Positions 1,231-12,140 of a stretch of 64,000 nt of DNA are shown here, in pieces (the first letter of the stretch is position 1; each line of letters starts with the position of its first letter). A model generated the notes under the pieces. That model was not told the origin of the DNA, did not search any database, and worked only from the letters and a program-made list of their open reading frames with translations. The position numbers and the translations under genes were made by a program. The DNA is taken from positions 186,299 through 250,298 of the forward strand of contig CAKOWQ010000003.1 of assembly GCA_934122395.1 (NCBI GenBank), written 5' to 3'. This DNA is from an uncultured Bacilli bacterium. Lineage in GTDB: Bacteria > Bacillota_I > Bacilli_A > RF39 > UBA660.

Positions 1231-2092
1231 TGGAAAATATGTAACTATAATGTTATGTTCACAATGTAATAATAATTGTAAACATTGCTATATAAGTTAT
1301 TCAGGAAGATTTGCTGATGAAGAATTATCAAGAATAATTCCAAATTTAAATGAAAAATATACAATTTTATTAAATGGTACAGAACCGATTATGTATCCTG
1401 AATATTATAAATATTTTAAAATGGTAAACGAACATAGAATAATAACAAACGGAATAACAATTCTTGAAAATCCAAATGTTTTGGATCAATTATCGGAAAA
1501 TGGAATTAATGAAGTTTGGCTTTCATACCATTTTGGTATTCAAAACGAAATATCAAGAATTAATGAAAATCAGTTAAATAATGTTATTCAGATTCTTAAA
1601 AAGAACAATTTTTTAGTAAAATTGATGTGTTCTTTATCAAAACATAATTATCAAAATGTTTCTAAATTCTGTGAAAGAGCATTAGAAATTGGAGCTGACA
1701 AAATAAAATTTACTAATTTTATTAGTCAAGGAAGTGCAAAAAGCAACTTTGATAACTCAGAATTTTTAAATCAAGAACAAATAAATTTTGTTTTGGAAGA
1801 AATAGAAAAAATGAGATCAATTATACCAAAGGAAGATTTGAATATACAAAGATGTGGAACATTTGGACCAAATATTCATAAAAACAATTTTCGATGTTTG
1901 GCTGGACAAGATATGATAGTTCTTACTCCAGATAGAAAACTATACAATTGTGTATTTAACATATCAAGTGATGATTGCATTGGATATATGGATAATGACT
2001 ATAATTTAATTATAAATTCAGAAGTTGCACCAATAAATCAATCATATTGTAAGGTACTAAAAAAACACAACGGAGTTGGAGGAATAAATTGA
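1217..2092 (+). CDS. Radical SAM enzyme with C-terminal SPASM/twitch-like Cys domain
   Basis: CxxxCxxC motif (CNNNCKHC) near the N-terminus; C-terminal CGTFGPN...FRCLAGQDMIVLTPDRKLYNCVF...DDCIGY resembles a SPASM/twitch auxiliary-cluster domain; overlaps neighbours on both sides (operonic). Confidence 0.75.
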   Translation: MEKYNGKYVTIMLCSQCNNNCKHCYISYSGRFADEELSRIIPNLNEKYTILLNGTEPIMYPEYYKYFKMVNEHRIITNGITILENPNVLDQLSENGINEVWLSYHFGIQNEISRINENQLNNVIQILKKNNFLVKLMCSLSKHNYQNVSKFCERALEIGADKIKFTNFISQGSAKSNFDNSEFLNQEQINFVLEEIEKMRSIIPKEDLNIQRCGTFGPNIHKNNFRCLAGQDMIVLTPDRKLYNCVFNISSDDCIGYMDNDYNLIINSEVAPINQSYCKVLKKHNGVGGIN

Positions 2093-3126
2093 AAATTTGT
2101 GGAAGAATTATAAATGTAAAACTAAAAACAAATGTATTGTTTTTATTGATTGAAAACAATAAAATCACACAAATAGTCATAAAAAATAATATTGAATATT
2201 TCTTAAATAATTTGAATGCTGGTGATATAGTTGAATGTCTCGTCACTAAAGATAGAAATAACAACGGAAAATATAAGCCAAAATATGATTCTTTTTTACT
2301 TAGAAGTCTAAAGATAATTAGTAAAAATAAAAAAAATTACAAATTAACATTAAATAAAACAAATATTATAAAATATAGTGATGTTAAATATGAAATAAGA
2401 AAATATTTACACAAATTAGGATATTTAGAAGTTACGTTGCCTATTTTAACTAATGGAGAAGTATCTTCAAAGTCAGAATCATTTTGTACTTTATATTCTA
2501 AGAAAAATATTAAATTATATTTGCGAAAAACTATGGACATATTTTTAAGAATGTATTCTTGTAGTGATTTTAATAAAATTTATTGTATAGGAAATTGCTA
2601 TAGAAATGAATATCTTACAAGTAAATATAAGCCAGAATTCGAAATGCTTTCCATCTTTAGCAATTATCTAAGTAAAAATAATGCAATAAAATTAGCTATA
2701 AAAATAATAAAAATTATAACTTCCAAGGATATTGAATGCAGTTTTATAGATGAAAAATCATATAATGAAATCACCCCGAGTGATAATACTTTTTATGTGA
2801 TAAATAATTATGCCAATTCTACAAATAGTTACTGTGATGTGCTTGAAAATGACAAAACAGATGAATTTAAAGTTAAATACAAAGGTGTTACCATTGTTCA
2901 TGGTGTAAGTGAAATATGCAATTATGATGAATATGTAAAAAAAATAGAGCTTCAAGGGAAAAAAGATGATTATGGTGAATTGCAAATTATTGAGAATTTA
3001 ATTGATTCTGGTGCTCCACAATGTTATAATCTGGGTATTAGTATAGTCAGACTTTTAAGTTTATATAATAATCTAAAAATTAAAGATTATGATATATTTT
3101 CATTTGATAGATTAGGAGAAATTTAA
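2089..3126 (+). CDS. Miniature class IIb aminoacyl-tRNA-synthetase paralog (LysRS/AsnRS-like; OB-fold N-domain plus truncated catalytic core); probable amino-acid ligase
   Basis: TTG start with GGAGG RBS. N-terminal OB-fold-like KICGRIINVKLKTNVLFLLIENNKITQIVIK. Class II motif 1-like LHKLGYLEVTLPIL, motif 2 YRNE...PEFEML (LysRS-like FRNE/PEF) and motif 3-like NLGISIVRLL. Only 345 aa, against about 450-500 for a true aaRS. Confidence 0.7.
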   Translation: MKICGRIINVKLKTNVLFLLIENNKITQIVIKNNIEYFLNNLNAGDIVECLVTKDRNNNGKYKPKYDSFLLRSLKIISKNKKNYKLTLNKTNIIKYSDVKYEIRKYLHKLGYLEVTLPILTNGEVSSKSESFCTLYSKKNIKLYLRKTMDIFLRMYSCSDFNKIYCIGNCYRNEYLTSKYKPEFEMLSIFSNYLSKNNAIKLAIKIIKIITSKDIECSFIDEKSYNEITPSDNTFYVINNYANSTNSYCDVLENDKTDEFKVKYKGVTIVHGVSEICNYDEYVKKIELQGKKDDYGELQIIENLIDSGAPQCYNLGISIVRLLSLYNNLKIKDYDIFSFDRLGEI

Positions 3127-4203
3127 ATGAAAGAAGAAATTGATTTAAAAAAACTAACAAAAGAATATTTAAAATCTTATTATTCTATTAATTCTTATAT
3201 AGGATGTACAATAAATTGTGGATACTGTTTTTTAGCACCAATTAAAATAGTTCCAATGCGTCCAATAAAAGTCATAGATGAAAAAGAATTGATACGTAAT
3301 ATGATTAATGACAATTATTTTGAAAAAGGTAAAACTGTTATATCTTTGAATAATAGAACAGACCCATTTATATCACAAGAAGTTAAAAATAGTACTTTTA
3401 AATTATTAGATATTATGGAAGAATTGAATCTTAAAAATATTGTTACAATAACATCAAAAGGTCTATTAACTGAAGAAGATGCAAAAAAATTAGATAGTTA
3501 TAATAATATTAAAATCGTTATTATTGTAACTTATAATGGAATCCCTTTAAAAATACAACCTATTAATAAAATAAATCAAGAAAATACTATGAAAAATGTT
3601 TCAAAATGTAAAAATGTTTATTTGTTGCATCAATTTAGGCCTATTATTCCTGGGGTAAATGATGATGAAAAAACAATTAGAGAAGTAGTTGATTTTGCTA
3701 AAAAGTATTGTGATGCAACGATTTTCCAAGGAATTAGAGTTAACGATTATATAAAAAATAGACTTGAAGAAAGAGAATACTTGTATAGTGGTACAGTTGG
3801 TGATTCACATAAACAAAAAAGTGCGAGTACGGACGCGATATTTGAACAACTAAGACTTGAAGATAAAAATTATCAAATTTTCGATCATACATCCTGTGCT
3901 TTAAGTTATATTTTTAAAACGGCAGATTATAACTTACATTATTCTAAAAATAATTGCTCTAAATTGTGTAAAAATTATGAATTATGTCATAACTTAAATT
4001 ATAAATTACCTGTAGACTTAGAAGGTAAACTAAGAAAAATTGGTGTTAATTCCAATTGGGAGCTAAGGGATAAAACTTTAATAATTGATGGTTCATTAAA
4101 TGATGAACAAAAATCTTATATTAAACATATATTGAATCTTAATGTGAAAGCTAAAATTAGGGAAAATACATATTCAGAAAAAATAATGGAGGGAAAAAAG
4201 TGA
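3127..4203 (+). CDS. Radical SAM enzyme, SPL/COG1533-like
   Basis: IGCTINCGYCF = CxxxCxYC cluster motif typical of the spore-photoproduct-lyase-like radical SAM group; GGAGAA RBS. Confidence 0.65.
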   Translation: MKEEIDLKKLTKEYLKSYYSINSYIGCTINCGYCFLAPIKIVPMRPIKVIDEKELIRNMINDNYFEKGKTVISLNNRTDPFISQEVKNSTFKLLDIMEELNLKNIVTITSKGLLTEEDAKKLDSYNNIKIVIIVTYNGIPLKIQPINKINQENTMKNVSKCKNVYLLHQFRPIIPGVNDDEKTIREVVDFAKKYCDATIFQGIRVNDYIKNRLEEREYLYSGTVGDSHKQKSASTDAIFEQLRLEDKNYQIFDHTSCALSYIFKTADYNLHYSKNNCSKLCKNYELCHNLNYKLPVDLEGKLRKIGVNSNWELRDKTLIIDGSLNDEQKSYIKHILNLNVKAKIRENTYSEKIMEGKK

Positions 4204-5474
4204 ATATAAAAATATTTTTTGATTTTCACGATGTATTTGTTGATGCAAAAAGCGCGTGGATTAAAGCATTAAAAGAAAAAACTAAATCAAATAAGGCAGA
4301 AATTGACTACAATAGAGGGTTATCAAAAAAAATAATATGCGAAAAATATAAATTAAATTATGAACAACTAGAAAAACTTTACAGAGTATATTTAAATCCA
4401 ATTAATGATAATATTGATTTTGCTGAAAAATTGAGTCAATCATATAAAATAAATATTTTATCTATGTCTAGAAAAGACAGATTACTTAAAGATATGCAAA
4501 AATTCAAACTTATTAATTTGTTTGATACGATAATCTCTAAAGAAGATATAATAGAATATAAAACAAAAGATGAATATTTAGTTTCTATTTCTTCTGATTA
4601 TGATTGGATTATATATTTTAATCATGAAAGTAATACTATTATTCAGAAAGATAATATTATTTATTTACCAGTAAATTTAAAAGGAGATTTATCTAAATTT
4701 AAAAATATTAGTTTTACTGAACATGCTAAAAACAAATTGCTATATAATGACTTATCTAAATATTATATGTATGCGATTGCTAATGATACTTCTTTGGAAA
4801 CAAACTTTTTATCAGAAATATATAAAAGATATAATTTGCCAACCGATGGAAAAATCCTTGATTGCTGTTGTGGTGTAGGACGACATGACTATTTACTTGC
4901 AAATGCTGGCTATCAGGTCACTGGAATCGATATTTCTAAAGAACAAATAACTAATGCAAAAAGAATTCATAATCATAAGAACATTGATTATCATGTTATG
5001 GATGTAAGGCATATTGATTTATTAGAAAAAAATTATGATATGTCAATTTGTATGTGGACAACTTACAATTATCTTTCCCAGGATAGTGATTTTGTAAGCT
5101 TTATCAAGTCAAATTATCAGCACCAACATAAAGGATCATTGATAGTATTAGATTCAAAAAACATTCCTAGATTAAATAATAGACGAGTTTATAAAAGAAA
5201 TAGTTCAACTGATAACGGAATAGAAATAGAACTAATTGTAAACAAATATATTATTAACAACATACAAAATTCACAATACCTATACTTTATAAAAGATAAA
5301 GACGATAAGAAATTTTATTTTGATGATGAATTCGTAAGATTTTATACTCTTGATGAAATTACAAAATTGGTAAATGAGTATTACGAAGTGGTAGATGTAT
5401 TTGGAGATTTTGATTTTAGTTCCTATGATAAAAAAATGAGTAATAGATTTATTGTGGTATTAAGGAGAAAGTAA
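4200..5474 (+). CDS. Two-domain protein: N-terminal HAD-like hydrolase fold (non-canonical motif I) fused to a class I SAM-dependent methyltransferase
   Basis: GTG start with GGAGGG RBS; HAD motif-III-like NLFDTIISKEDIIEYKTKDEY; MTase motif I ILDCCCGVGRHDYLLANAGYQVTGIDIS. Confidence 0.7.
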   Translation: MNIKIFFDFHDVFVDAKSAWIKALKEKTKSNKAEIDYNRGLSKKIICEKYKLNYEQLEKLYRVYLNPINDNIDFAEKLSQSYKINILSMSRKDRLLKDMQKFKLINLFDTIISKEDIIEYKTKDEYLVSISSDYDWIIYFNHESNTIIQKDNIIYLPVNLKGDLSKFKNISFTEHAKNKLLYNDLSKYYMYAIANDTSLETNFLSEIYKRYNLPTDGKILDCCCGVGRHDYLLANAGYQVTGIDISKEQITNAKRIHNHKNIDYHVMDVRHIDLLEKNYDMSICMWTTYNYLSQDSDFVSFIKSNYQHQHKGSLIVLDSKNIPRLNNRRVYKRNSSTDNGIEIELIVNKYIINNIQNSQYLYFIKDKDDKKFYFDDEFVRFYTLDEITKLVNEYYEVVDVFGDFDFSSYDKKMSNRFIVVLRRK

Positions 5475-5983
5475 TGAATAATGAATTAAAAAAATTAAAT
5501 TCATTATTTGATGGTAGTGATGAATCTGCTATGAATATTGCATATGACATTGCACATAAATATTCTTCTTGCAGATTATGTGGAGTTGGTAAAGGTGTTG
5601 GTGCAGTTATAATTAAAGATAATAAAATAATTTGTTATGGATATAATGGTATAATTGATAATATTAAACCATGCACTAAAGATAGTTGTCTAAGAATATC
5701 TAGAAATATTGAACATGGCACAAGAAGAGATGAATGTTATGGAGATTGTGCAGAAAAACGTGCATTCATTAATGCTTACCAAAATAATATAGACATAAAA
5801 AACTCAAAAATATATATTACAAAATCTCCTTGTGTATCATGCTGTAAATTACTAATTAATTTAGGAATAAAAGAAGTCATATATAATGAAATATATAGTA
5901 ATTCAGATTTTTCTTTTGAACTTTTAAATTTAGCTAGAATTAAATATAAAAAATTAGAAAATTTTTATAGAGATGATCATTAA
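5474..5983 (+). CDS. Cytidine/deoxycytidylate deaminase-fold (CDA) zinc enzyme
   Basis: CAEKRA (CAE zinc/catalytic motif) and SPCVSCCKLLINLGIKEVIY (PCxxC zinc motif); GGAGAA RBS; last gene of the 691-5983 operon. Confidence 0.8.
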   Translation: MNNELKKLNSLFDGSDESAMNIAYDIAHKYSSCRLCGVGKGVGAVIIKDNKIICYGYNGIIDNIKPCTKDSCLRISRNIEHGTRRDECYGDCAEKRAFINAYQNNIDIKNSKIYITKSPCVSCCKLLINLGIKEVIYNEIYSNSDFSFELLNLARIKYKKLENFYRDDH

Positions 5984-6059
5984 AATTTTAAATATATAAT
6001 TTTTTTTAAAAATAGTTGAAATTTTAAAAAAGAAATTGTAAAATAATAAATATGTTAAA

Positions 6060-6262
6060 TGTATTGATTGGGACACGGCTAATAACAATTATTTACAAAG
6101 CGAATTGTGGAAGGTGAAAGGCAATTAAATAACTTATTAGTTACTACCCATAAACAGGACTCGAAAGATGTTCCCGGTAATAGCCGTTATTAGTAATTAA
6201 GTTAAACCAAGGATGGTACCGTGTAATTCACTCCTGTTAGAATTTCTAGCAGGAGTTTTTAT
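6060..6262 (+). promoter_or_regulatory. T-box riboswitch leader (Thr specifier) controlling thrS
   Basis: T-box sequence AACCAAGGATGGTACCGTG at about 6205-6225; ACU-ACC threonine codons at about 6145-6150 (candidate specifier); terminator hairpin CACTCCTG...CAGGAGT plus U tract at 6229-6262; upstream promoter-like TTGAAA-17-TAAAAT around 6013-6043. Confidence 0.85.
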
Positions 6263-6279: not shown

Positions 6280-6465
6280 ATGAACGAAACAAAGAAAGAG
6301 TTAAAAAGACAATTATTTGAATTAAGATTAGCTCAAGCATTTTATATATCAGAACATAAAGAAGATAGTGAAGAAATAGTAAAAGATATTAAGGTATTGA
6401 AAAAGAAATATGCAAGAGTATTGCTTAATGAAAAAATGGGAGGAAAAGAAAATGATAAACATTAA
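6280..6465 (+). CDS. Small 61-aa ORF between the T-box terminator and thrS, overlapping the thrS start by 14 nt
   Basis: Strong RBS AGGGGG 8 nt upstream of ATG 6280; charged, helical, non-repetitive peptide; could be a translated leader peptide or a small protein. Confidence 0.35.
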   Translation: MNETKKELKRQLFELRLAQAFYISEHKEDSEEIVKDIKVLKKKYARVLLNEKMGGKENDKH

Positions 6466-8197
6466 AGAAGATGAAAAATTAAGTGTTATGAATCACTCAT
6501 GTGCTCATTTACTAGCACAAGCAGTAAAACATTTATATCCAAAAGCATTATTTTGGGTAGGACCTGTTATAGAAGATGGATTCTATTATGATATAGATTT
6601 AGGTGATGAATCTATTAATGATGAAGATTTAGCAAGAATTGAAAAAGAAATGAAGAAAATTGCTAAAGATGGAAAGAGAATTGTAAGAGAAGAAATAAGT
6701 AAAGAAGAAGCTTTAGAAAGATTTAAAAATGATCCATATAAAATAGATTTAATTTCTAGGATGGATGAAAATGATACAGTTATTTCTTGCTATACTCAGG
6801 GAGATTTTACTGACCTTTGTAGAGGACCACATCTTGAAAGTGTTAAAGAATTAAAGTATTTTAAATTACTCAAAGTAAGTGGTGCTTATTGGAAAGGTGA
6901 TTCTAATAACAAAATGCTTCAAAGAATTTATGGCATTTGTTTTGATAATGAAAATTCTTTAAGTGAATATTTGGCTTTTTTAGAAGAAGCTAAGAAAAGG
7001 GATCATAAAAAACTAGGTAAGGAATTAGATTTATTTATGATGAGTGAATATGGTCCAGGATTTCCTTTCTTCTTAAATAATGGAATGATTTTAAGAAATC
7101 AATTAGAAAATTTTTGGTATGAAGAACATACTAAAGAAGGGTATGAATTTGTTAAAACTCCAATTATGTTAAATAAAGAACTTTGGGAATTATCTGGACA
7201 CTGGTTTAATTATAGAGAAAATATGTATACAAGTGAAATTGATGATAAAGTATTTGCAATTAAACCTATGAACTGTCCTGGTGGAATGCTTGTATATAAA
7301 AATTCTCTTCATTCTTATAAAGATTTACCATTAAGAATCGGAGAATTAGGTCAAGTACATAGACATGAAGCAAGCGGAGCATTAAACGGTCTATTTAGAG
7401 TTAGAACATTTACGCAAGATGATGCTCATATATTTATGAGAGAAGATCAAATAGAAGAAGAAGTTATAAGATTAATTAACTTTATAGATAGAATGTATTC
7501 TATATTTGGATTAACTTATGATATTGAATTATCGACTAGACCAGAAGAAAAATATATTGGAAGTATTGAAATTTGGAATAAATCTGAAAAAGCTTTAGAA
7601 GAAGCATGTCATAGAGCAGGACATGATTGTAAAATAAATCCTGGTGATGGTGCTTTCTATGGACCTAAATTAGACTTTCATATTAAAGATTCTTTGGGTA
7701 GAGTATGGCAATGTGGAACAATTCAACTTGATATGAATTTACCAGAAAGATTTGATTTAACATATATTAGTTCTGATGGAAGTAAGAAAAGACCAGTTAT
7801 GTTACATCGCGTAATATATGGCTCAATTGAAAGATTTATTGGTATTTTAATTGAACATTATGCTGGAGCATTTCCACTTTGGCTTAGTCCAGTACAAGTA
7901 AATATTATTCCAGTTAATAATGAACTACATATGAATTATTGTAATGAAATTAAGAATTTACTTGAAGAAAATAATATTAGGGTTAAAGTTGATGCTAGAG
8001 ATGAAAAATTAGGATATAAAATGCGTGAAAGTCAAATCAAAAAAATACCTATAACTTTAATTATTGGAGATAATGAAGTTAATAAAAAACAAATTAGTTA
8101 TCGTAAATATGGAAATCAAGAAACTTATACTTGTGAAATTGATGAATTTATTAGTGAAATTAGTAAATGCTTAAAAGATAAAAAATATAATATTTAA
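6452..8197 (+). CDS. thrS: Threonyl-tRNA synthetase (lacks the N-terminal TGS domain)
   Basis: MINIK start with GGGAGG RBS; HSCAHLLAQAVK editing-domain motif at residue about 15; class II core and anticodon-binding domain; preceded by T-box. Confidence 0.9.
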   Translation: MINIKEDEKLSVMNHSCAHLLAQAVKHLYPKALFWVGPVIEDGFYYDIDLGDESINDEDLARIEKEMKKIAKDGKRIVREEISKEEALERFKNDPYKIDLISRMDENDTVISCYTQGDFTDLCRGPHLESVKELKYFKLLKVSGAYWKGDSNNKMLQRIYGICFDNENSLSEYLAFLEEAKKRDHKKLGKELDLFMMSEYGPGFPFFLNNGMILRNQLENFWYEEHTKEGYEFVKTPIMLNKELWELSGHWFNYRENMYTSEIDDKVFAIKPMNCPGGMLVYKNSLHSYKDLPLRIGELGQVHRHEASGALNGLFRVRTFTQDDAHIFMREDQIEEEVIRLINFIDRMYSIFGLTYDIELSTRPEEKYIGSIEIWNKSEKALEEACHRAGHDCKINPGDGAFYGPKLDFHIKDSLGRVWQCGTIQLDMNLPERFDLTYISSDGSKKRPVMLHRVIYGSIERFIGILIEHYAGAFPLWLSPVQVNIIPVNNELHMNYCNEIKNLLEENNIRVKVDARDEKLGYKMRESQIKKIPITLIIGDNEVNKKQISYRKYGNQETYTCEIDEFISEISKCLKDKKYNI

Positions 8198-8227
8198 AAT
8201 TAGAAATGTAAGATGTTATTGGTTATA

Positions 8228-8250
8228 AAGACGAGATTTCGTCTTTTTTT
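8228..8250 (+). terminator. Rho-independent terminator after thrS
   Basis: AAGACGAGATTTCGTCTTTTTTT hairpin plus T tract. Confidence 0.7.
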
Positions 8251-8293
8251 AGTTTGTGGTATAATTTTGTTAGAAATATAGGTGTGATTAAAT

Positions 8294-8890
8294 ATGAAAA
8301 AAGATATTAAACATTATAAACAATCTGGAAACGCTTGTGCTATAGCATGTTTGTTAATGATTTTGGAGTATTATGATGTGATTACAAAAGCTAATTATGT
8401 TTATGAGAAAAAGTACTATAATTCATATTCTTCTCAATATTTATTAGGAGTTCCGTTATCAGCAGTATTTTGGCATTTAATAAAGAATAATATAAATGCT
8501 GAAATGTTTCATTCAGAAAAAAACTTGTTTTCTAATAATAAACAAATAATTGACAATAATATTTTTAATCTTGCAATTATTGAATATAAAGAGTATCTGG
8601 AATATGCAATTCTAAAAGGCGCCAAAGTATACAATGGTGTAAATATAAATATCGATTTAATACAAGAAAAGGTCAAAGACAATTTCATTATTCTTGCTGG
8701 GGTAATCAATCAGAATTTTCATACTATTTTAATTACTTCTTTTAAAAATGATTACTTTATAGTTAATAATCCTGCAGTTAATGTATCTACAAATATAGAA
8801 GGTGAAAAAGTTAATGAGTTTATGAATACTGATATTGGAAAATGGTTTATCGCAATACCAAAAGGAGAAGTCTATGAAAAAGAAATATGA
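8294..8890 (+). CDS. Peptidase C39-like (papain-fold) domain protein
   Basis: KQSGNACAIACLLMILEYY matches the C39 catalytic Cys region (Q...C-G/A-x-A-C-L-x-M-I). Confidence 0.5.
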   Translation: MKKDIKHYKQSGNACAIACLLMILEYYDVITKANYVYEKKYYNSYSSQYLLGVPLSAVFWHLIKNNINAEMFHSEKNLFSNNKQIIDNNIFNLAIIEYKEYLEYAILKGAKVYNGVNINIDLIQEKVKDNFIILAGVINQNFHTILITSFKNDYFIVNNPAVNVSTNIEGEKVNEFMNTDIGKWFIAIPKGEVYEKEI

Positions 8891-9569
8891 AGATGATAAT
8901 TATGTTATATATTATCCTGATGCTTTAGAGGAGTTTGTAAATGATATGATAATTTGTACTAAGGCACAGATAAATAATATATATACTTTCTTTAATGTAA
9001 AAAATCTTAGAAAAATTCAAGTTAATTTATTTGATAATATAGATGAATTTAGAAAATTTGTTATTGATTTGCGTAGTGGTGATGAAAAATCATTACCTCA
9101 GTATGCAAAGGGAACTTTTGATGATGGGATGATTAATGCTTATATTGAACCTAACTTCATTAAAACTTCTAGTCTTTATGAAAAAAGAAAACGCATGATG
9201 CTACATGAAACTGTTCATTTGATATATAATGAAATTCTTTTAATGAATAATTTTGATAATAGAGTAGTATGGCTTGATGAAGGCCTTGCTCAAAACTTAT
9301 CTTTAGAAGAAGAGAAAAATGATAAAAAAATTAAGCAAAGTATTATTTCTAACAATATAGCAATTGATATAAATGATTTGAGTCATGGGGATATTTTTAT
9401 TACTAGTGAATATAACGGTTATGATTTATCATATTTTGCAGTTAGATATTTATTAGATACTTTGAATAGTAAACAAATAATAGAAATTATAAAAGATAAA
9501 GATAAGGCAATTAAACTTGGTAAGACAATAATTATAGACGCAATTAATTTTTATAAAAGGAGAGTATAA
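8874..9569 (+). CDS. Zinc metallopeptidase-like protein (HExxH ... EGLA; Peptidase_MA_2-like)
   Basis: LHETVHLIY (HExxH) followed by WLDEGLAQ; start MKKKYEDD with AAGGAGAAG RBS, overlapping the upstream gene. Confidence 0.5.
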   Translation: MKKKYEDDNYVIYYPDALEEFVNDMIICTKAQINNIYTFFNVKNLRKIQVNLFDNIDEFRKFVIDLRSGDEKSLPQYAKGTFDDGMINAYIEPNFIKTSSLYEKRKRMMLHETVHLIYNEILLMNNFDNRVVWLDEGLAQNLSLEEEKNDKKIKQSIISNNIAIDINDLSHGDIFITSEYNGYDLSYFAVRYLLDTLNSKQIIEIIKDKDKAIKLGKTIIIDAINFYKRRV

Positions 9570-9570
9570 T

Positions 9571-10587
9571 ATGAAAGAATTTATAACTAATGATAATAAT
9601 TTAAAAGAAGAAGATGTAACTGAAATAGTAAAGAGAGTAAAAGTATTAATAATTAATTCAAGTAATGAAGTGTTACTAGGATATTCTCACAATGATTATC
9701 AATTCCCTGGGGGACATGTTGAAGATGGTGAAACTTTGTTAGATACTGTTAATAGAGAAGTTATGGAAGAAGTAGGGATTAACTTAAATGTTAAAGAACT
9801 AAAACCTTTTGCAAAGATGATAGGTTATTATAAAGATTGGCCAGCAATAGGGAAAAATAGAAAAATCGAAATATATTATTATGAAGTTAAAACTGATGAA
9901 AAACCTAACTTGGATAATTTGCAGTTAACTGAGTATGAAAAGGATGGGGGATTTTGTCTTAAATATATTCCTCTTGAAAATATAGAAGAAGAACTTATTA
10001 ATAATATCAATATATATAGTGATAAACATGGTATAACCAAAGAAATGTTAGAGGTGCTTGAGTATTATAAAAAAGAAAAAAGCAAACTAAAACTCGAAAA
10101 TTTGAAATGTGTAGATAATAATATTGATTTGGATAAATACATAAATTTTTATAATAAATTAAAAGCAACTATGGAAGATCCGTCATGGTTAGGAGATTTT
10201 ACTAAAACCGATATAGAATTTATACTAAATAATGGTGGTAAGATATGGATTTATTATTTAAATAATGATCCTGTTTGTTCTATGATGTATATTCCATCTT
10301 CTATAAAAAGTTGTCAAAAACTATTAGATGGTAAGTATGATTATAGAGAAGTTATAGATTATGGCCCTATGATGGTATGGTGCGATTATTTTGGTAATAG
10401 TCTTCAATATCAAATGTTAGAGGTATTAGATGAGTATTCAAGAAATAATGGCAAGAAATATGCTGTTAGCACAGTTCATCCTGATAATGTTTATTCTATT
10501 AATAATTTATTAAAAGATGATTTTAAACATATTGGTACTAAAACTTTTACTAGAGGAGAAAGAAATATATATTTCAAAGCACTTTAG
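9571..10587 (+). CDS. Nudix hydrolase domain fused to a C-terminal GNAT-like domain
   Basis: Nudix box GGHVEDGETLLDTVNREVMEEVGI; C-terminal about 150 aa has an acetyltransferase-like fold signature. Confidence 0.6.
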   Translation: MKEFITNDNNLKEEDVTEIVKRVKVLIINSSNEVLLGYSHNDYQFPGGHVEDGETLLDTVNREVMEEVGINLNVKELKPFAKMIGYYKDWPAIGKNRKIEIYYYEVKTDEKPNLDNLQLTEYEKDGGFCLKYIPLENIEEELINNINIYSDKHGITKEMLEVLEYYKKEKSKLKLENLKCVDNNIDLDKYINFYNKLKATMEDPSWLGDFTKTDIEFILNNGGKIWIYYLNNDPVCSMMYIPSSIKSCQKLLDGKYDYREVIDYGPMMVWCDYFGNSLQYQMLEVLDEYSRNNGKKYAVSTVHPDNVYSINNLLKDDFKHIGTKTFTRGERNIYFKAL

Positions 10588-10688
10588 ACAATTAATTTAC
10601 ACTTTTTTACTTTTCGCGTTTCTATAATCCGTTGCTTGTTTTTATAATCTATGTTAGGATCAAAGTATAAAATAAGGGAGGATATGTA

Positions 10689-12140
10689 ATGAAAAAGAAA
10701 AGCTTATTTATTTTTATATGTGCTGTTATATTTTCTTTAGGAATGGGTGTAGATGCTAAAGAAATAACAGTATGCTCTGATGCAGCAACTTGTGATTATA
10801 CAGTTTTAAGAGATGCTACTGATGCTTCAATTGCAGGGGATGTAGTAAAATTAAAAGAAAATACTACTATAACTAGAGGAGTGTTATTACATAGTGAAAC
10901 TACATTAGATTTAGGTGGATTTACATTAACAGCTGAACCTGGTACATTTATTGCGGTAATAAACGGTAATAAAGATGTTAAAATTGTTAATGGTACAATT
11001 GAATTAAACAATGCTGCTAATGCTACAGGGCAAAATGCTAATGTGGTAATGCAAGGTGTTACTACTAAAGATGGAGCTACTACTTCATTAACAATTGCTG
11101 AAGACGTTACTATTAATTCAAATTTAAATGGTATTGTTATTCAAGCAGAGGATAAAGAATCATACAACACAATTTTAAATCTTTATGGTAAAATTAATGC
11201 TAAAGAAGTAGGTATTACAATTAATGGTTTTATTAGTGTTGTTGATGCACTTCAACCGGTAGTTAATATTTATGAATCTGCATCAATTAAAACAACAGAA
11301 GGACCTGCAATATATGCTGCTGGTTACGGAAGCTGGAACATTTATGGAGGATACTTTGAAGGAACAGAAGCTGTAAGTGTCAAATCAGGTAATATTAATA
11401 TATCTGGTGGTACTTTTAAAGCAATTGGTGAATATAAGGAAACGCCAACAGTAAATAATCGTGGATGGGAAGATACAGGTGCCGCTTTATCAATTACTTC
11501 GAGTACGAATTCTTATGCTAAAAATGTTACATTAAAAATTACTGCAGGACAATTTATAAGTAAAAATGGTCACGCATTATATGAGGGAATAACTGATGCT
11601 AATACTTCTGCTATAGTAAATGCAAGTATTACTGGTGGTATATTTACTTCAGCTACAGGAAAAGATAGTGTTAAAATCACTTCTAATAGTGATACTTTAA
11701 ATGGAGTTATTACTGGAGGAACATTTAGTACTACTCCAAGAGAAGAATTAGTTAATTCTAATGTTTCATCTTCTACTTTGGATGATGGTACTGTATTAGT
11801 TGGTTCTAAACATGGAATTACTGTAGGAACAATTGAAAATGGTATTGTAACTTTAGATAAAAACGTTGGAATTAAAGGTGAATTAATCAAACTTACTATT
11901 ACCCCAAAAGAAGGGTATGAAATAGATAAGATTGAAGTCTTGTGTGATGGTGATGAAGTATTAAGAACTGATAACGGATTTATTATGCCAGACGGTGACG
12001 TTGAAGTAAAAGTTACATTTAAGAAAGTTATTACTAATCCTAATACTTTTGATAATAGCTTAAATACATTGATAATATTAGGGGTTTGTGCATTAGGCGG
12101 ATTTATAACTTATAGAAAACTTGAAAAAAGTGCTAAATAA
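10689..12140 (+). CDS. Secreted beta-helix-like surface protein with C-terminal NPNTFDN sorting-like signal, TM segment and basic tail
   Basis: Signal peptide MKKKSLFIFICAVIFSLGMGVDA; repetitive Gly/Thr/Asn-rich segments typical of parallel beta-helix adhesins; C-terminus ...NPNTFDNSLNTLIILGVCALGGFITYRKLEKSAK. Confidence 0.6.
   Translation: MKKKSLFIFICAVIFSLGMGVDAKEITVCSDAATCDYTVLRDATDASIAGDVVKLKENTTITRGVLLHSETTLDLGGFTLTAEPGTFIAVINGNKDVKIVNGTIELNNAANATGQNANVVMQGVTTKDGATTSLTIAEDVTINSNLNGIVIQAEDKESYNTILNLYGKINAKEVGITINGFISVVDALQPVVNIYESASIKTTEGPAIYAAGYGSWNIYGGYFEGTEAVSVKSGNINISGGTFKAIGEYKETPTVNNRGWEDTGAALSITSSTNSYAKNVTLKITAGQFISKNGHALYEGITDANTSAIVNASITGGIFTSATGKDSVKITSNSDTLNGVITGGTFSTTPREELVNSNVSSSTLDDGTVLVGSKHGITVGTIENGIVTLDKNVGIKGELIKLTITPKEGYEIDKIEVLCDGDEVLRTDNGFIMPDGDVEVKVTFKKVITNPNTFDNSLNTLIILGVCALGGFITYRKLEKSAK

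Follow-up and report, generated by a model that had tools for sequence, protein, structure and literature searches.

A predicted truncated lysyl-tRNA synthetase paralog with constant radical SAM and HAD-domain partners, and its possible part in making an aminoacyl-nucleotide antimetabolite

We have analysed a stretch of 64,000 nucleotides (hereafter the window) from an uncultured Bacilli bacterium (GTDB lineage Bacteria; Bacillota_I; Bacilli_A; RF39; UBA660; GenBank assembly GCA_934122395.1, contig CAKOWQ010000003.1, positions 186,299 to 250,298 of the forward strand), in which a small synthetase-like gene lies between two radical S-adenosylmethionine (SAM) genes. Judged by its sequence and model, the product of this gene is a truncated class IIb aminoacyl-tRNA synthetase (aaRS) paralog rather than a translational synthetase, a lysyl-tRNA synthetase (LysRS), an EpmA or an AsnA, and it represents a real and conserved paralog family for which we found no earlier description. 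We call it mini-LysRS. Its fold, its residue pattern, the constant trio of genes to which it belongs, the variable genes that flank this trio and the mobile contexts in which it is found are direct observations. The interpretation that we prefer, tentatively and with somewhat less than even confidence, is that mini-LysRS is the amino-acid-coupling enzyme of a cassette making an aminoacyl-nucleotide or aminoacyl-nucleoside antimetabolite, and that the flanking genes provide immunity to it. The gene is located as follows.

2089 to 3126, + strand: mini LysRS-like class IIb aaRS paralog, 345 aa (profile, model, Foldseek and alignment)

The open reading frame (ORF) had been singled out in a first-pass annotation made from the letters alone; all the motifs quoted there are found in the translation, and rechecking the start and the stop left the frame unchanged. 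Translation would begin at a TTG codon with a GGAGG Shine-Dalgarno sequence 6 nt upstream, and this TTG overlaps the stop of the preceding radical SAM gene (rSAM1) in the string TTGA, while the TAA at the other end is followed immediately by the ATG of the second radical SAM gene (rSAM2). Because of this overlap and of the abutting TAA and ATG, the three genes are translationally coupled. The position between two radical SAM genes was confirmed, since both neighbours carry a CX3CX2C motif and match radical SAM families.

The mini-LysRS protein matches Pfam tRNA-synt_2 with 92.9 bits (cut-off 25), and its AlphaFold model, built on 25 family sequences, has a pLDDT of 89 and a pTM of 0.83, with an N-terminal beta-barrel (approximately residues 1-78) followed by an alpha/beta core. 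When the model was compared with the PDB by Foldseek, the best 50 matches were all class II LysRS (TMq 0.76-0.81, E ca. 1e-24), and the family profile aligned end-to-end with the LysRS of Geobacillus (3a74; profile 2-342 against residues 60-491, 139 bits). Among the matches listed, EpmA/GenX came second of the solved relatives with 85 bits, AspRS reached at most 71 and AsnRS 42. The OB fold and LysRS-like class II core proposed in the first-pass annotation are thus borne out by the model, by the Foldseek matches and by motifs 1-3, as is the retention of the OB domain, which is unusual for truncated aaRS paralogs. Also correct was the claim that the protein is shorter than a real synthetase; it is ca. 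150 aa below LysRS, the N-terminal helix, the hinge and ca. 90 aa inserted after motif 2 being absent.

Similarity of fold does not amount to orthology here. Against the curated LysRS models the protein scored 74.6 bits (PRK00484, cut-off 468) and 68.2 bits (TIGR00499, cut-off 427.6), and against those of EpmA 63.4 bits (PRK09350, cut-off 264) and 37.5 bits (TIGR00462, cut-off 286.9), in all cases far under the cut-off. AsnA was absent, with no model among the NCBIfam matches and no chain among the 60 of 74 PDB profile matches listed, and the likeness to AsnA that had been suggested earlier was dropped. On the basis of these cut-offs, of the residues and of the architecture, orthology to LysRS, EpmA or AsnA was rejected. 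Nor do we take the family for a product of chance, because homologous clusters at 42-97% identity share their invariant columns.

The active site was read from 33 family sequences aligned with seven canonical LysRS- or EpmA-like controls, in the numbering of Escherichia coli LysU, whose reference sequence was checked by its motifs. Invariant columns number 49 across the 25 sequences of alignment A1. The regions concerned and the correspondence with LysU are given below.

2089 to 2325, + strand: OB-fold (anticodon-binding-type) domain, residues 1-79; G5, K11, F18, Q28 and D46 match canonical LysRS
2596 to 2667, + strand: motif 2 region, residues 170-193; R172, E174 and F184 kept, S188 and F190 in place of the lysine-binding Glu and Tyr
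2863 to 2913, + strand: strand-turn-strand for Mg and amino-acid binding in LysRS, residues 259-275; E259, K261, T268, H271 and E275 for R, E (Mg), E (Mg), N and E
3022 to 3060, + strand: motif 3 region, residues 312-324; C312, N314, G316, S318 and the invariant R321
Kept, LysU R262: family R172 (motif 2, alpha-phosphate)
Kept, LysU E264: family E174
Kept, LysU F274: family F184 (adenine stack)
Kept as acidic, LysU E240: family D150 (alpha-amino contact)
Kept, LysU E428: family E275 (alpha-amino contact)
Kept, LysU G475: family G316
Kept, LysU R480: family R321 (motif 3)
Replaced, LysU E278, Y280 and N424: family S188, F190 and H271 (lysine side-chain pocket)
Replaced, LysU E414 and E421: family K/R261 and T268 (the two Mg-ligand glutamates)
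Replaced, LysU R412: family E259
Replaced, LysU G216/A217: family S126/S127
Replaced, LysU T471, G473 and G477: family C312, N314 and S318

The class II motif residues P118, R172 and R321 are invariant in the family, and the motif 1 Pro, the motif 2 Arg, the stacking Phe, the motif 3 Arg and the acidic contacts to the alpha-amino group are shared with class II LysRS. The replacements in turn are invariant or nearly so within the family, and the set of invariant active-site positions (R172, F184, D150, E259, T268, H271, E275 and R321) includes new polar residues. Of the lysine pocket (LysU E278, Y280, N424 and E428) the family keeps only the last, as E275. The controls behave otherwise at this pocket, with E, Y and E kept in all seven and N424 in six of the seven. 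At the first Mg-ligand position the controls carry E, Q or Y, and at the second six of the seven carry E, whereas K/R261 and T268 are found in all 33 family sequences except one (P0054, with Ile at the second position). The motif-2 loop residues for the beta and gamma phosphates (LysU H270 and N271) are unconserved in the family, and pocket residues differ from clade to clade. The invariant residues C158, C312 and H271 might suggest a Zn site like that of ThrRS, but C158 maps to a buried helix position and we make no claim for such a site.

By this comparison, the part of the site that would hold an aminoacyl-AMP-like ligand is preserved, and the part for Mg-pyrophosphate and for the side chain of lysine is lost. 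The ATP-dependent ligase proposed in the first-pass annotation is therefore uncertain, under the refuting condition (loss of ATP-binding residues) named there: the contacts to adenine and alpha-phosphate and to the alpha-amino group are invariant, while the Mg ligands are changed and the residues of the loop for the beta and gamma phosphates are not conserved. A basic side chain at a Mg-ligand position has a possible counterpart in HisRS, where Arg259 reportedly stands in place of the catalytic Mg at the alpha-phosphate. HisRS is a subclass IIa enzyme, however, and its positional equivalence to K/R261 is by analogy only.

In the OB domain, the triad that reads U35 of the anticodon (R/F/Q in LysRS) is present as K11/F18/Q28 (K/R-F-Q) in all clades, likewise G5 and D46, and the clade of the window alone has a conserved, enlarged loop, D55-x-x-N58-N-G-K-Y. 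The conservation of the triad indicates a tRNA, not a free nucleotide, as the probable ligand of this domain, so that of the two kinds of ligand suggested for it earlier the nucleic acid is favoured and the nucleotide disfavoured.

The neighbours of mini-LysRS were followed by mapping the window proteins with tblastn onto every fetched locus (the L numbers below), and the genes of the window that matter here are the following.

3127 to 4203, + strand: rSAM2, radical SAM protein resembling spore photoproduct lyase (SPL), the invariable partner; CX3CX2C at C27/C31/C34
4200 to 5474, + strand: HAD-like domain fused to a class I SAM methyltransferase (MTase); the HAD part is found in every cassette with the aaRS-like gene
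5474 to 5983, + strand: dCMP-deaminase-type protein; its start overlaps the stop of the HAD-methyltransferase gene
1217 to 2092, + strand: rSAM1, SPASM/twitch-type radical SAM protein, in the sub-clade of the window only (window, L003/4, L007 and L027-29)
691 to 1230, + strand: DUF402 protein (nucleotide hydrolase family), a recurrent accessory in sub-clades, fused to GNAT in L001

At every locus with enough sequence, the rSAM2 gene and a HAD domain, in most cases fused to the MTase, stand beside the aaRS-like gene, in frames that overlap or abut. The order is aaRS-like, rSAM2, HAD(-MTase) in the clade of the window and in the divergent clades of P0048 and P0049, and rSAM2, HAD-MTase, aaRS-like in a clade with a 444-aa protein (L014/15 and L033-37). 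This adjacency, persisting through the shuffling of gene order, is strong evidence that the trio is a functional unit. The proposal that mini-LysRS has a role outside translation, together with the adjacent radical SAM enzyme or enzymes, is considered very probable.

Within the trio, rSAM2 shows stronger conservation (62-85% identity) than the aaRS-like protein (42-81%). It matches its Pfam family with 31.2 bits, over the cut-off, has the cluster motif CTINCGYC and carries four further conserved cysteines (257, 277, 281 and 287). The closest fold to its model (pLDDT 91.6) is SPL with a TM-score of ca. 0.52-0.54, followed by generic radical SAM cores including PFL-AE. The rSAM2 family is about twice the size of that of the aaRS-like protein and also occurs without it. 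In the HAD protein, motif I reads FDFHD[IV]FV in every clade, DxH replacing the usual DxD with His for the second catalytic Asp, which suggests a chemistry other than that of a standard phosphatase. The deaminase of the window is closest to true dCMP deaminases, and its gene recurs after the HAD gene in hosts of 25 to 52% GC (window, L001, L005, L008 and L030/31). The more variable rSAM1 stays just under its Pfam cut-off with 26.8 bits, has many radical SAM matches in NCBIfam and bears the motif CNNNCKHC; the DUF402 protein has no solved relative by sequence. Taking together the SPL-like rSAM2, the nucleotide-gene contexts and the dCMP-type deaminase, we regard pyrimidine (deoxy)nucleotides as the most plausible substrates of the partner enzymes.

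Outside the trio the genes vary. Those downstream of the cassette in the window include the following.

6410 to 8197, + strand: ThrRS gene thrS, 747 bits against a cut-off of 384, no TGS domain
9571 to 10587, + strand: NUDIX-domain protein, 1.4 kb beyond thrS, a weak possible accessory

In the clade of the window, a genuine ThrRS adjoins the cassette in seven distinct arrangements. Its gene follows the cassette in five of them (the window with L027/L028, L003, L005, L001 and L008) and precedes it in the other two (L006 and L013). A HisRS-like gene is found directly upstream of the aaRS-like gene in two divergent clades (L021/22, and L024 with a 4-nt overlap). Peptidases of the S66 family follow the trio in two clades (L011; L014/15 with L033-37). 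The S66 protein is placed with the MccF-type structures, which it matches with 280, 141 and 108 bits, and apart from LdcA, for which the scores are 36-72 bits. Peptidases of the S51 family accompany it in another two (L023; L025/26). GNAT, NUDIX, HD and DUF402 genes recur near the cassette, including a fusion of GNAT to DUF402 in L001 and NUDIX genes in L001, L014 and L029. The immunity-type S66, S51 and GNAT genes are absent from the window itself and present in its sister clades (L011, L014, L023, L025 and L033-37).

It is from these flanks that we propose the antimetabolite cassette, because they match the immunity families of microcin C and the aaRS pairing of the AcmD/AcmF and SbzA clusters. 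Immunity to microcin C, whose warhead is an aminoacyl-nucleotide, is known to be conferred by MccF (S66), MccG (S51) and MccE/RimL (GNAT) (PMC9239234), and the same warhead-cleaving peptidase families, with GNAT genes, recur beside the cassette. The cassette differs in having no MccB-type ThiF adenylyltransferase (neither family was matched by any of six cassette proteins), no precursor peptide and no MccC exporter, and its warhead would come from the aaRS-like enzyme instead of being built on a ribosomal peptide. The clusters of ascamycin (AcmD/AcmF) and SB-203208 (SbzA) combine an aaRS-like transferase that uses aminoacyl-tRNA with an extra, resistant aaRS copy (PMC12945691). They share with the cassette an aaRS-derived enzyme beside a genuine aaRS gene, here ThrRS in the seven arrangements and HisRS-like in the two clades, as well as the proposed logic by which an amino acid placed on a nucleoside-like acceptor yields a synthetase inhibitor. 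AcmF and SbzA are, in contrast, full-length AlaRS-like or IleRS-like Streptomyces proteins that transfer the amino acid of their own ancestry, whereas the cassette enzyme, from anaerobic gut microbes, is a mini LysRS derivative that has ThrRS or HisRS, an SPL-like rSAM and a HAD-MTase as companions.

The product, amino acid, donor, target and immunity roles are what we infer, and the scheme would run as follows. The core of the cassette would be the aaRS-like protein, the SPL-like radical SAM and the HAD(-methyltransferase), often with a dCMP-deaminase-type gene, and the antimetabolite would be an aminoacyl-adenylate mimic that poisons a tRNA synthetase. First, rSAM2, the HAD/MTase protein and the deaminase would alter a scaffold, either a pyrimidine (deoxy)nucleotide or a nucleoside related to it. 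Mini-LysRS would then bind a moiety resembling a nucleoside monophosphate at the site once used for ATP (R172, F184 and R321), hold a non-lysine alpha-amino acid by D150, E275, H271 and clade-specific pocket residues, and join the two. Finally, the producer would be protected by a spare copy of the target synthetase (ThrRS in the window, HisRS-like elsewhere), or alternatively the compound would be destroyed or acetylated by the MccF-type S66, the MccG-type S51, the GNAT or the NUDIX, DUF402 and HD hydrolases.

As to where the amino acid comes from within the antimetabolite hypothesis, we lean slightly, at a little under an even chance, towards aminoacyl-tRNA as the donor, as in AcmF and SbzA, because the residues for Mg and pyrophosphate are lost and the anticodon triad is kept. 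Direct activation with ATP, in which K/R261 would replace Mg by analogy with Arg259 of HisRS, is almost as probable. In its most specific form, the hypothesis says that a Mg-independent mini-enzyme joins an amino acid, from aminoacyl-tRNA or by metal-free activation, to a pyrimidine nucleotide remodelled by rSAM2, generating clade-specific poisons with matched immunity, and as a whole this version is somewhat unlikely.

Several observations weigh against the antimetabolite interpretation. The OB triad reads U35, and tRNA-Thr has G35, a poor fit to a Thr-tRNA donor. The pocket residues do not follow the type of flank, P0047 (HisRS-linked) resembling P0045 and P0046 (S66- and S51-linked). The S66, S51 and GNAT enzymes could equally be tailoring enzymes, and the identification of the flanking GNATs as MccE/RimL found no support beyond generic GNAT membership. 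Two of the loci (L030/L031) are without any immunity-type flank and have only the deaminase and a resolvase. The thrS gene of the window forms a unit of its own, with promoter-like site, T-box and terminator, its ThrRS score is normal, and it may be simply housekeeping. A secreted antibiotic is not evident either, because no exporter, uptake-carrier peptide or siderophore gene was found in the cassette, and the compound may act inside the cell.

Inhibitors of synthetases are validated antibiotics, mupirocin among them, and, to our knowledge, self-resistance-guided mining has yet to reach uncultured low-GC anaerobes. If the antimetabolite hypothesis is true, the cassette would be a compact new means of making synthetase inhibitors of the aminoacyl-nucleotide type in the gut microbiome of humans and animals, producing aminoacyl-adenylate mimics whose specificity changes with the clade (Thr, His and others). 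It would also mean that microcin-C-like warheads can arise by a pathway that is neither ribosomal nor peptide-based, and that the class II fold serves a catalytic purpose not seen before, within a new branch of aaRS paralogs that would include the first LysRS derivative with an anticodon domain but no metal site. The pairing with ThrRS, HisRS, MccF and MccG would name the likely targets and so make the hypothesis testable. Whatever the product, the trio of aaRS-like protein, SPL-like rSAM and DxH HAD-MTase is an undescribed enzyme system putatively acting on nucleotides.

The main rival is that the cassette serves the hypermodification of nucleotides or nucleic acids, or makes an antiviral nucleotide analogue, with restriction evasion or phage defence as its purpose, and this we regard as unlikely. 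A pyrimidine (as deoxynucleoside mono- or triphosphate, or as a DNA or RNA base of the element or the host) would be decorated with an amino acid by the aaRS-like enzyme, rSAM2 would rearrange the conjugate, the MTase, GNAT and peptidases would sculpt it, and the NUDIX, HD and DUF402 proteins would police the pool. The model for such a step is gp53 of phage M6, an SPL-like radical SAM enzyme with two Fe-S clusters that rearranges an amino-acid-thymine conjugate (PMC8989533). The nearest solved fold of rSAM2 is SPL, and its second set of four conserved cysteines recalls the two clusters of gp53. Genes for dCMP deaminase, thymidylate-kinase-like protein, thymidylate synthase and nucleoside diphosphate (NDP) kinase are found near rSAM2 or its relatives, acetyltransferases are known sculpting enzymes in the hypermodification of thymidine (PMC8989533), and the contexts are mobile or resemble defence islands. 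The TM-score to SPL is only ca. 0.5, however, rSAM2 has no BLAST-level similarity to any phage protein, and it probably acts on a free nucleotide instead of DNA. No relatives of the aaRS-like protein or of rSAM2 turned up in the phage collections INPHARED (50,697 records) and IMG/VR, and the cassette lacks a 5-hmdU kinase, an aGPT-Pplase, a dUMP hydroxymethylase and a glycosylase. A search for known anti-phage systems with PADLOC gave weak generic matches only (rSAM1 as pVip-like, the deaminase as dCTPase) and none for rSAM2. When bound to tRNA, the catalytic site of a class II enzyme faces the 3' end, not a base. Hypermodification would also leave unexplained the three independent adjacencies to class IIa synthetases, and why the peptidases belong to the two families known for the cleavage of aminoacyl-nucleotides.

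An improbable alternative is a tRNA-directed enzyme, which would bind a tRNA with a central-U anticodon and charge it with a non-canonical amino acid made by the radical SAM and MTase proteins, or else modify its 3' end, the ThrRS and HisRS neighbours then reflecting a shared link to translation. The conservation in all clades of the OB triad, G5 and D46 would fit such an enzyme, together with motifs 1-3, the alpha-amino contacts and the recurrent adjacency to genuine synthetases. Nevertheless, the Mg ligands for canonical activation are absent, the contexts of the partners indicate free nucleotides and not amino acids, the S66, S51, NUDIX and DUF402 flanks go unexplained, and a sporadic, mobile distribution is odd for a function in translation. 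A dedicated tRNA of the pyrrolysine kind was sought in the window and in nine cassette loci, and no tRNA gene accompanies the cassette in any of them, the only one detected being a tRNA-Arg in L008, 4 kb away and on the other strand.

About as improbable, in our estimate, is that mini-LysRS has no catalytic function and is a scaffold, substrate-binding or regulatory partner of rSAM2, as HisZ is for HisG, or a decoy that captures a molecule resembling an aminoacyl-adenylate. The loss of both Mg-ligand glutamates, the unconserved motif-2 loop and the strict coupling to rSAM2 would agree with this, and rSAM2 and the MTase can function without the aaRS-like protein. But the 49 invariant columns cluster at the active site and include new invariant polar residues, the pattern of a working pocket, and a variation of the pocket residues among clades is what one would expect if the substrates change.

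Essentially excluded is a protein aminoacylase like EpmA/PoxA acting with an aminomutase like EpmB, or an AsnA-like amidation enzyme, since, although EpmA is also a truncated LysRS paralog working outside translation, and the second-best known relative (among the matches listed) of a protein encoded beside radical SAM genes, its models score far under their cut-offs, it has no OB domain, the lysine pocket and metal residues are changed in mini-LysRS, neither rSAM1 nor rSAM2 matches the lysine-2,3-aminomutase families in Pfam or NCBIfam, no efp gene for its EF-P substrate occurs among the cassette genes, and AsnA has been dealt with above. The EpmA/EpmB analogy of the first-pass annotation consequently falls.

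Returning to the family itself, a word-indexed search recovered 34 clusters of the mini LysRS-like protein at 42-97% identity, and a profile search of 1.84 billion representatives gave 19 clusters (at 50% identity) at E <1e-30, with most of the ordinary LysRS coming next in the ranking. Full-length copies are present in only two of 185,579 GTDB species representatives, both metagenome-assembled genomes (MAGs) of uncultured gut Bacilli-type organisms, and a third, an Oscillospiraceae MAG (L008), has a deletion remnant only. The exact protein of the window is found on 51 public contigs, and a human gut metagenome is among the assemblies with 96% identity. Recombinase, relaxase or DnaB-like genes are located near the cassette in L001, L011, L012, L014/15 and L030, and the GC content of its hosts goes from 24 to 52%. 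As far as the sequence record goes, then, the cassette is rare, mobile and resident in gut and host-associated microbes, and has not been described before. No source gave a functional name for the family, the sole label being the automatic "lysyl-tRNA synthetase class 2", and no description of it was found in the literature; a 2022 review of aaRS duplications gives LysU, PoxA and LysX as the LysRS paralogs and contains nothing resembling it (PMC9437257).

Some of the copies deserve separate mention. The remnant in L008 (MAG SIG553, 43% GC) is a 241-aa ORF at 7998-8723 that fuses approximately residues 143-225 of the aaRS-like protein to ca. 208-355 of rSAM2, with the HAD-MTase, deaminase and ThrRS genes intact downstream. 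Frames are split in the rSAM2 and HAD-MTase genes of L013 (9050-11374) and in most genes of L005 (3795-8816), which reflects either decay of the cassette or an assembly error; UGA recoding was rejected for L005, where the pieces are in different frames and frameshifts are likelier. One sequence of alignment A1 (P0027) carries Trp in place of six glycines that are invariant elsewhere (G5, G123, G168, G272 and others), a pattern expected if UGA stands for Gly (code 25, of the Gracilibacteria/SR1 type) and was translated as Trp, and hence the family may extend to candidate-phylum bacteria. In L025 (894-14347), a cassette of the P0049 clade is found among genes with archaeal-type Pfam matches (DNA_primase_S, MJ0538) and Fic and ParE genes. 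At a distance of 6 kb the opposite strand encodes a canonical class IIb synthetase of 494 aa. The host may be an archaeon or the cassette part of an archaeal mobile element. Downstream of the HisRS-linked cassette of L021, and on the opposite strand, there is a second radical SAM/SPASM gene with a small methyltransferase gene (9777-11721, - strand), recalling rSAM1.

The rSAM2 protein has associations of its own. In L016/L017 (7429-10042; Selenomonas-type, 57% GC), genes for a thymidylate-kinase-like protein, rSAM2 and a methyltransferase have overlapping starts and adjoin HSP70-like and 1099-aa HerA-like genes, with no aaRS-like or HAD gene in this trio. More distant relatives (26% identity over the full length) occur on plasmids of Streptomyces (L018), Nostoc (L019) and Gluconobacter (L020), in an operon of radical SAM, 3'-5' exonuclease, small ATPase and aldo-keto reductase genes surrounded by toxin-antitoxin, HNH and integrase genes, and preceded in Streptomyces by genes for thymidylate synthase and NDP kinase. 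Possibly this plasmid operon is a nucleotide-based system that has not been described before.

In the window, thrS is preceded by the following regulatory element.

6055 to 6256, + strand: T-box leader (6055-6238) and terminator hairpin (6230-6256) before thrS

The leader, with a promoter-like site upstream at 6016-6044, matched RF00230 with 62.9 bits, under the gathering score of 93, and only in a search of 321 nt, having been missed by Rfam scans of the whole window and of 8 kb. Its specifier region is ACUACC, its F-box GCCGTTA and its T-box AAGGATGGTACCGTG, and the terminator hairpin has 12 bp. A 61-aa ORF (6280-6465) lies between this terminator and thrS, its end overlapping the predicted thrS start at 6410; the true start may be further in, because homologues align from residue 11-29. 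There is a single thrS copy in the 64 kb, and neither a canonical LysRS gene nor a tRNA gene was found within them. Directly beyond thrS (8294-9569) are genes for two proteins resembling Peptidase_C39_2 (198 aa) and Peptidase_MA_2 (244 aa, under the Pfam cut-off), both of which are absent from the otherwise syntenic L003. The GC content of the window is 23-32%, GC skew is positive almost throughout, and nearly all of its large ORFs are on the + strand.

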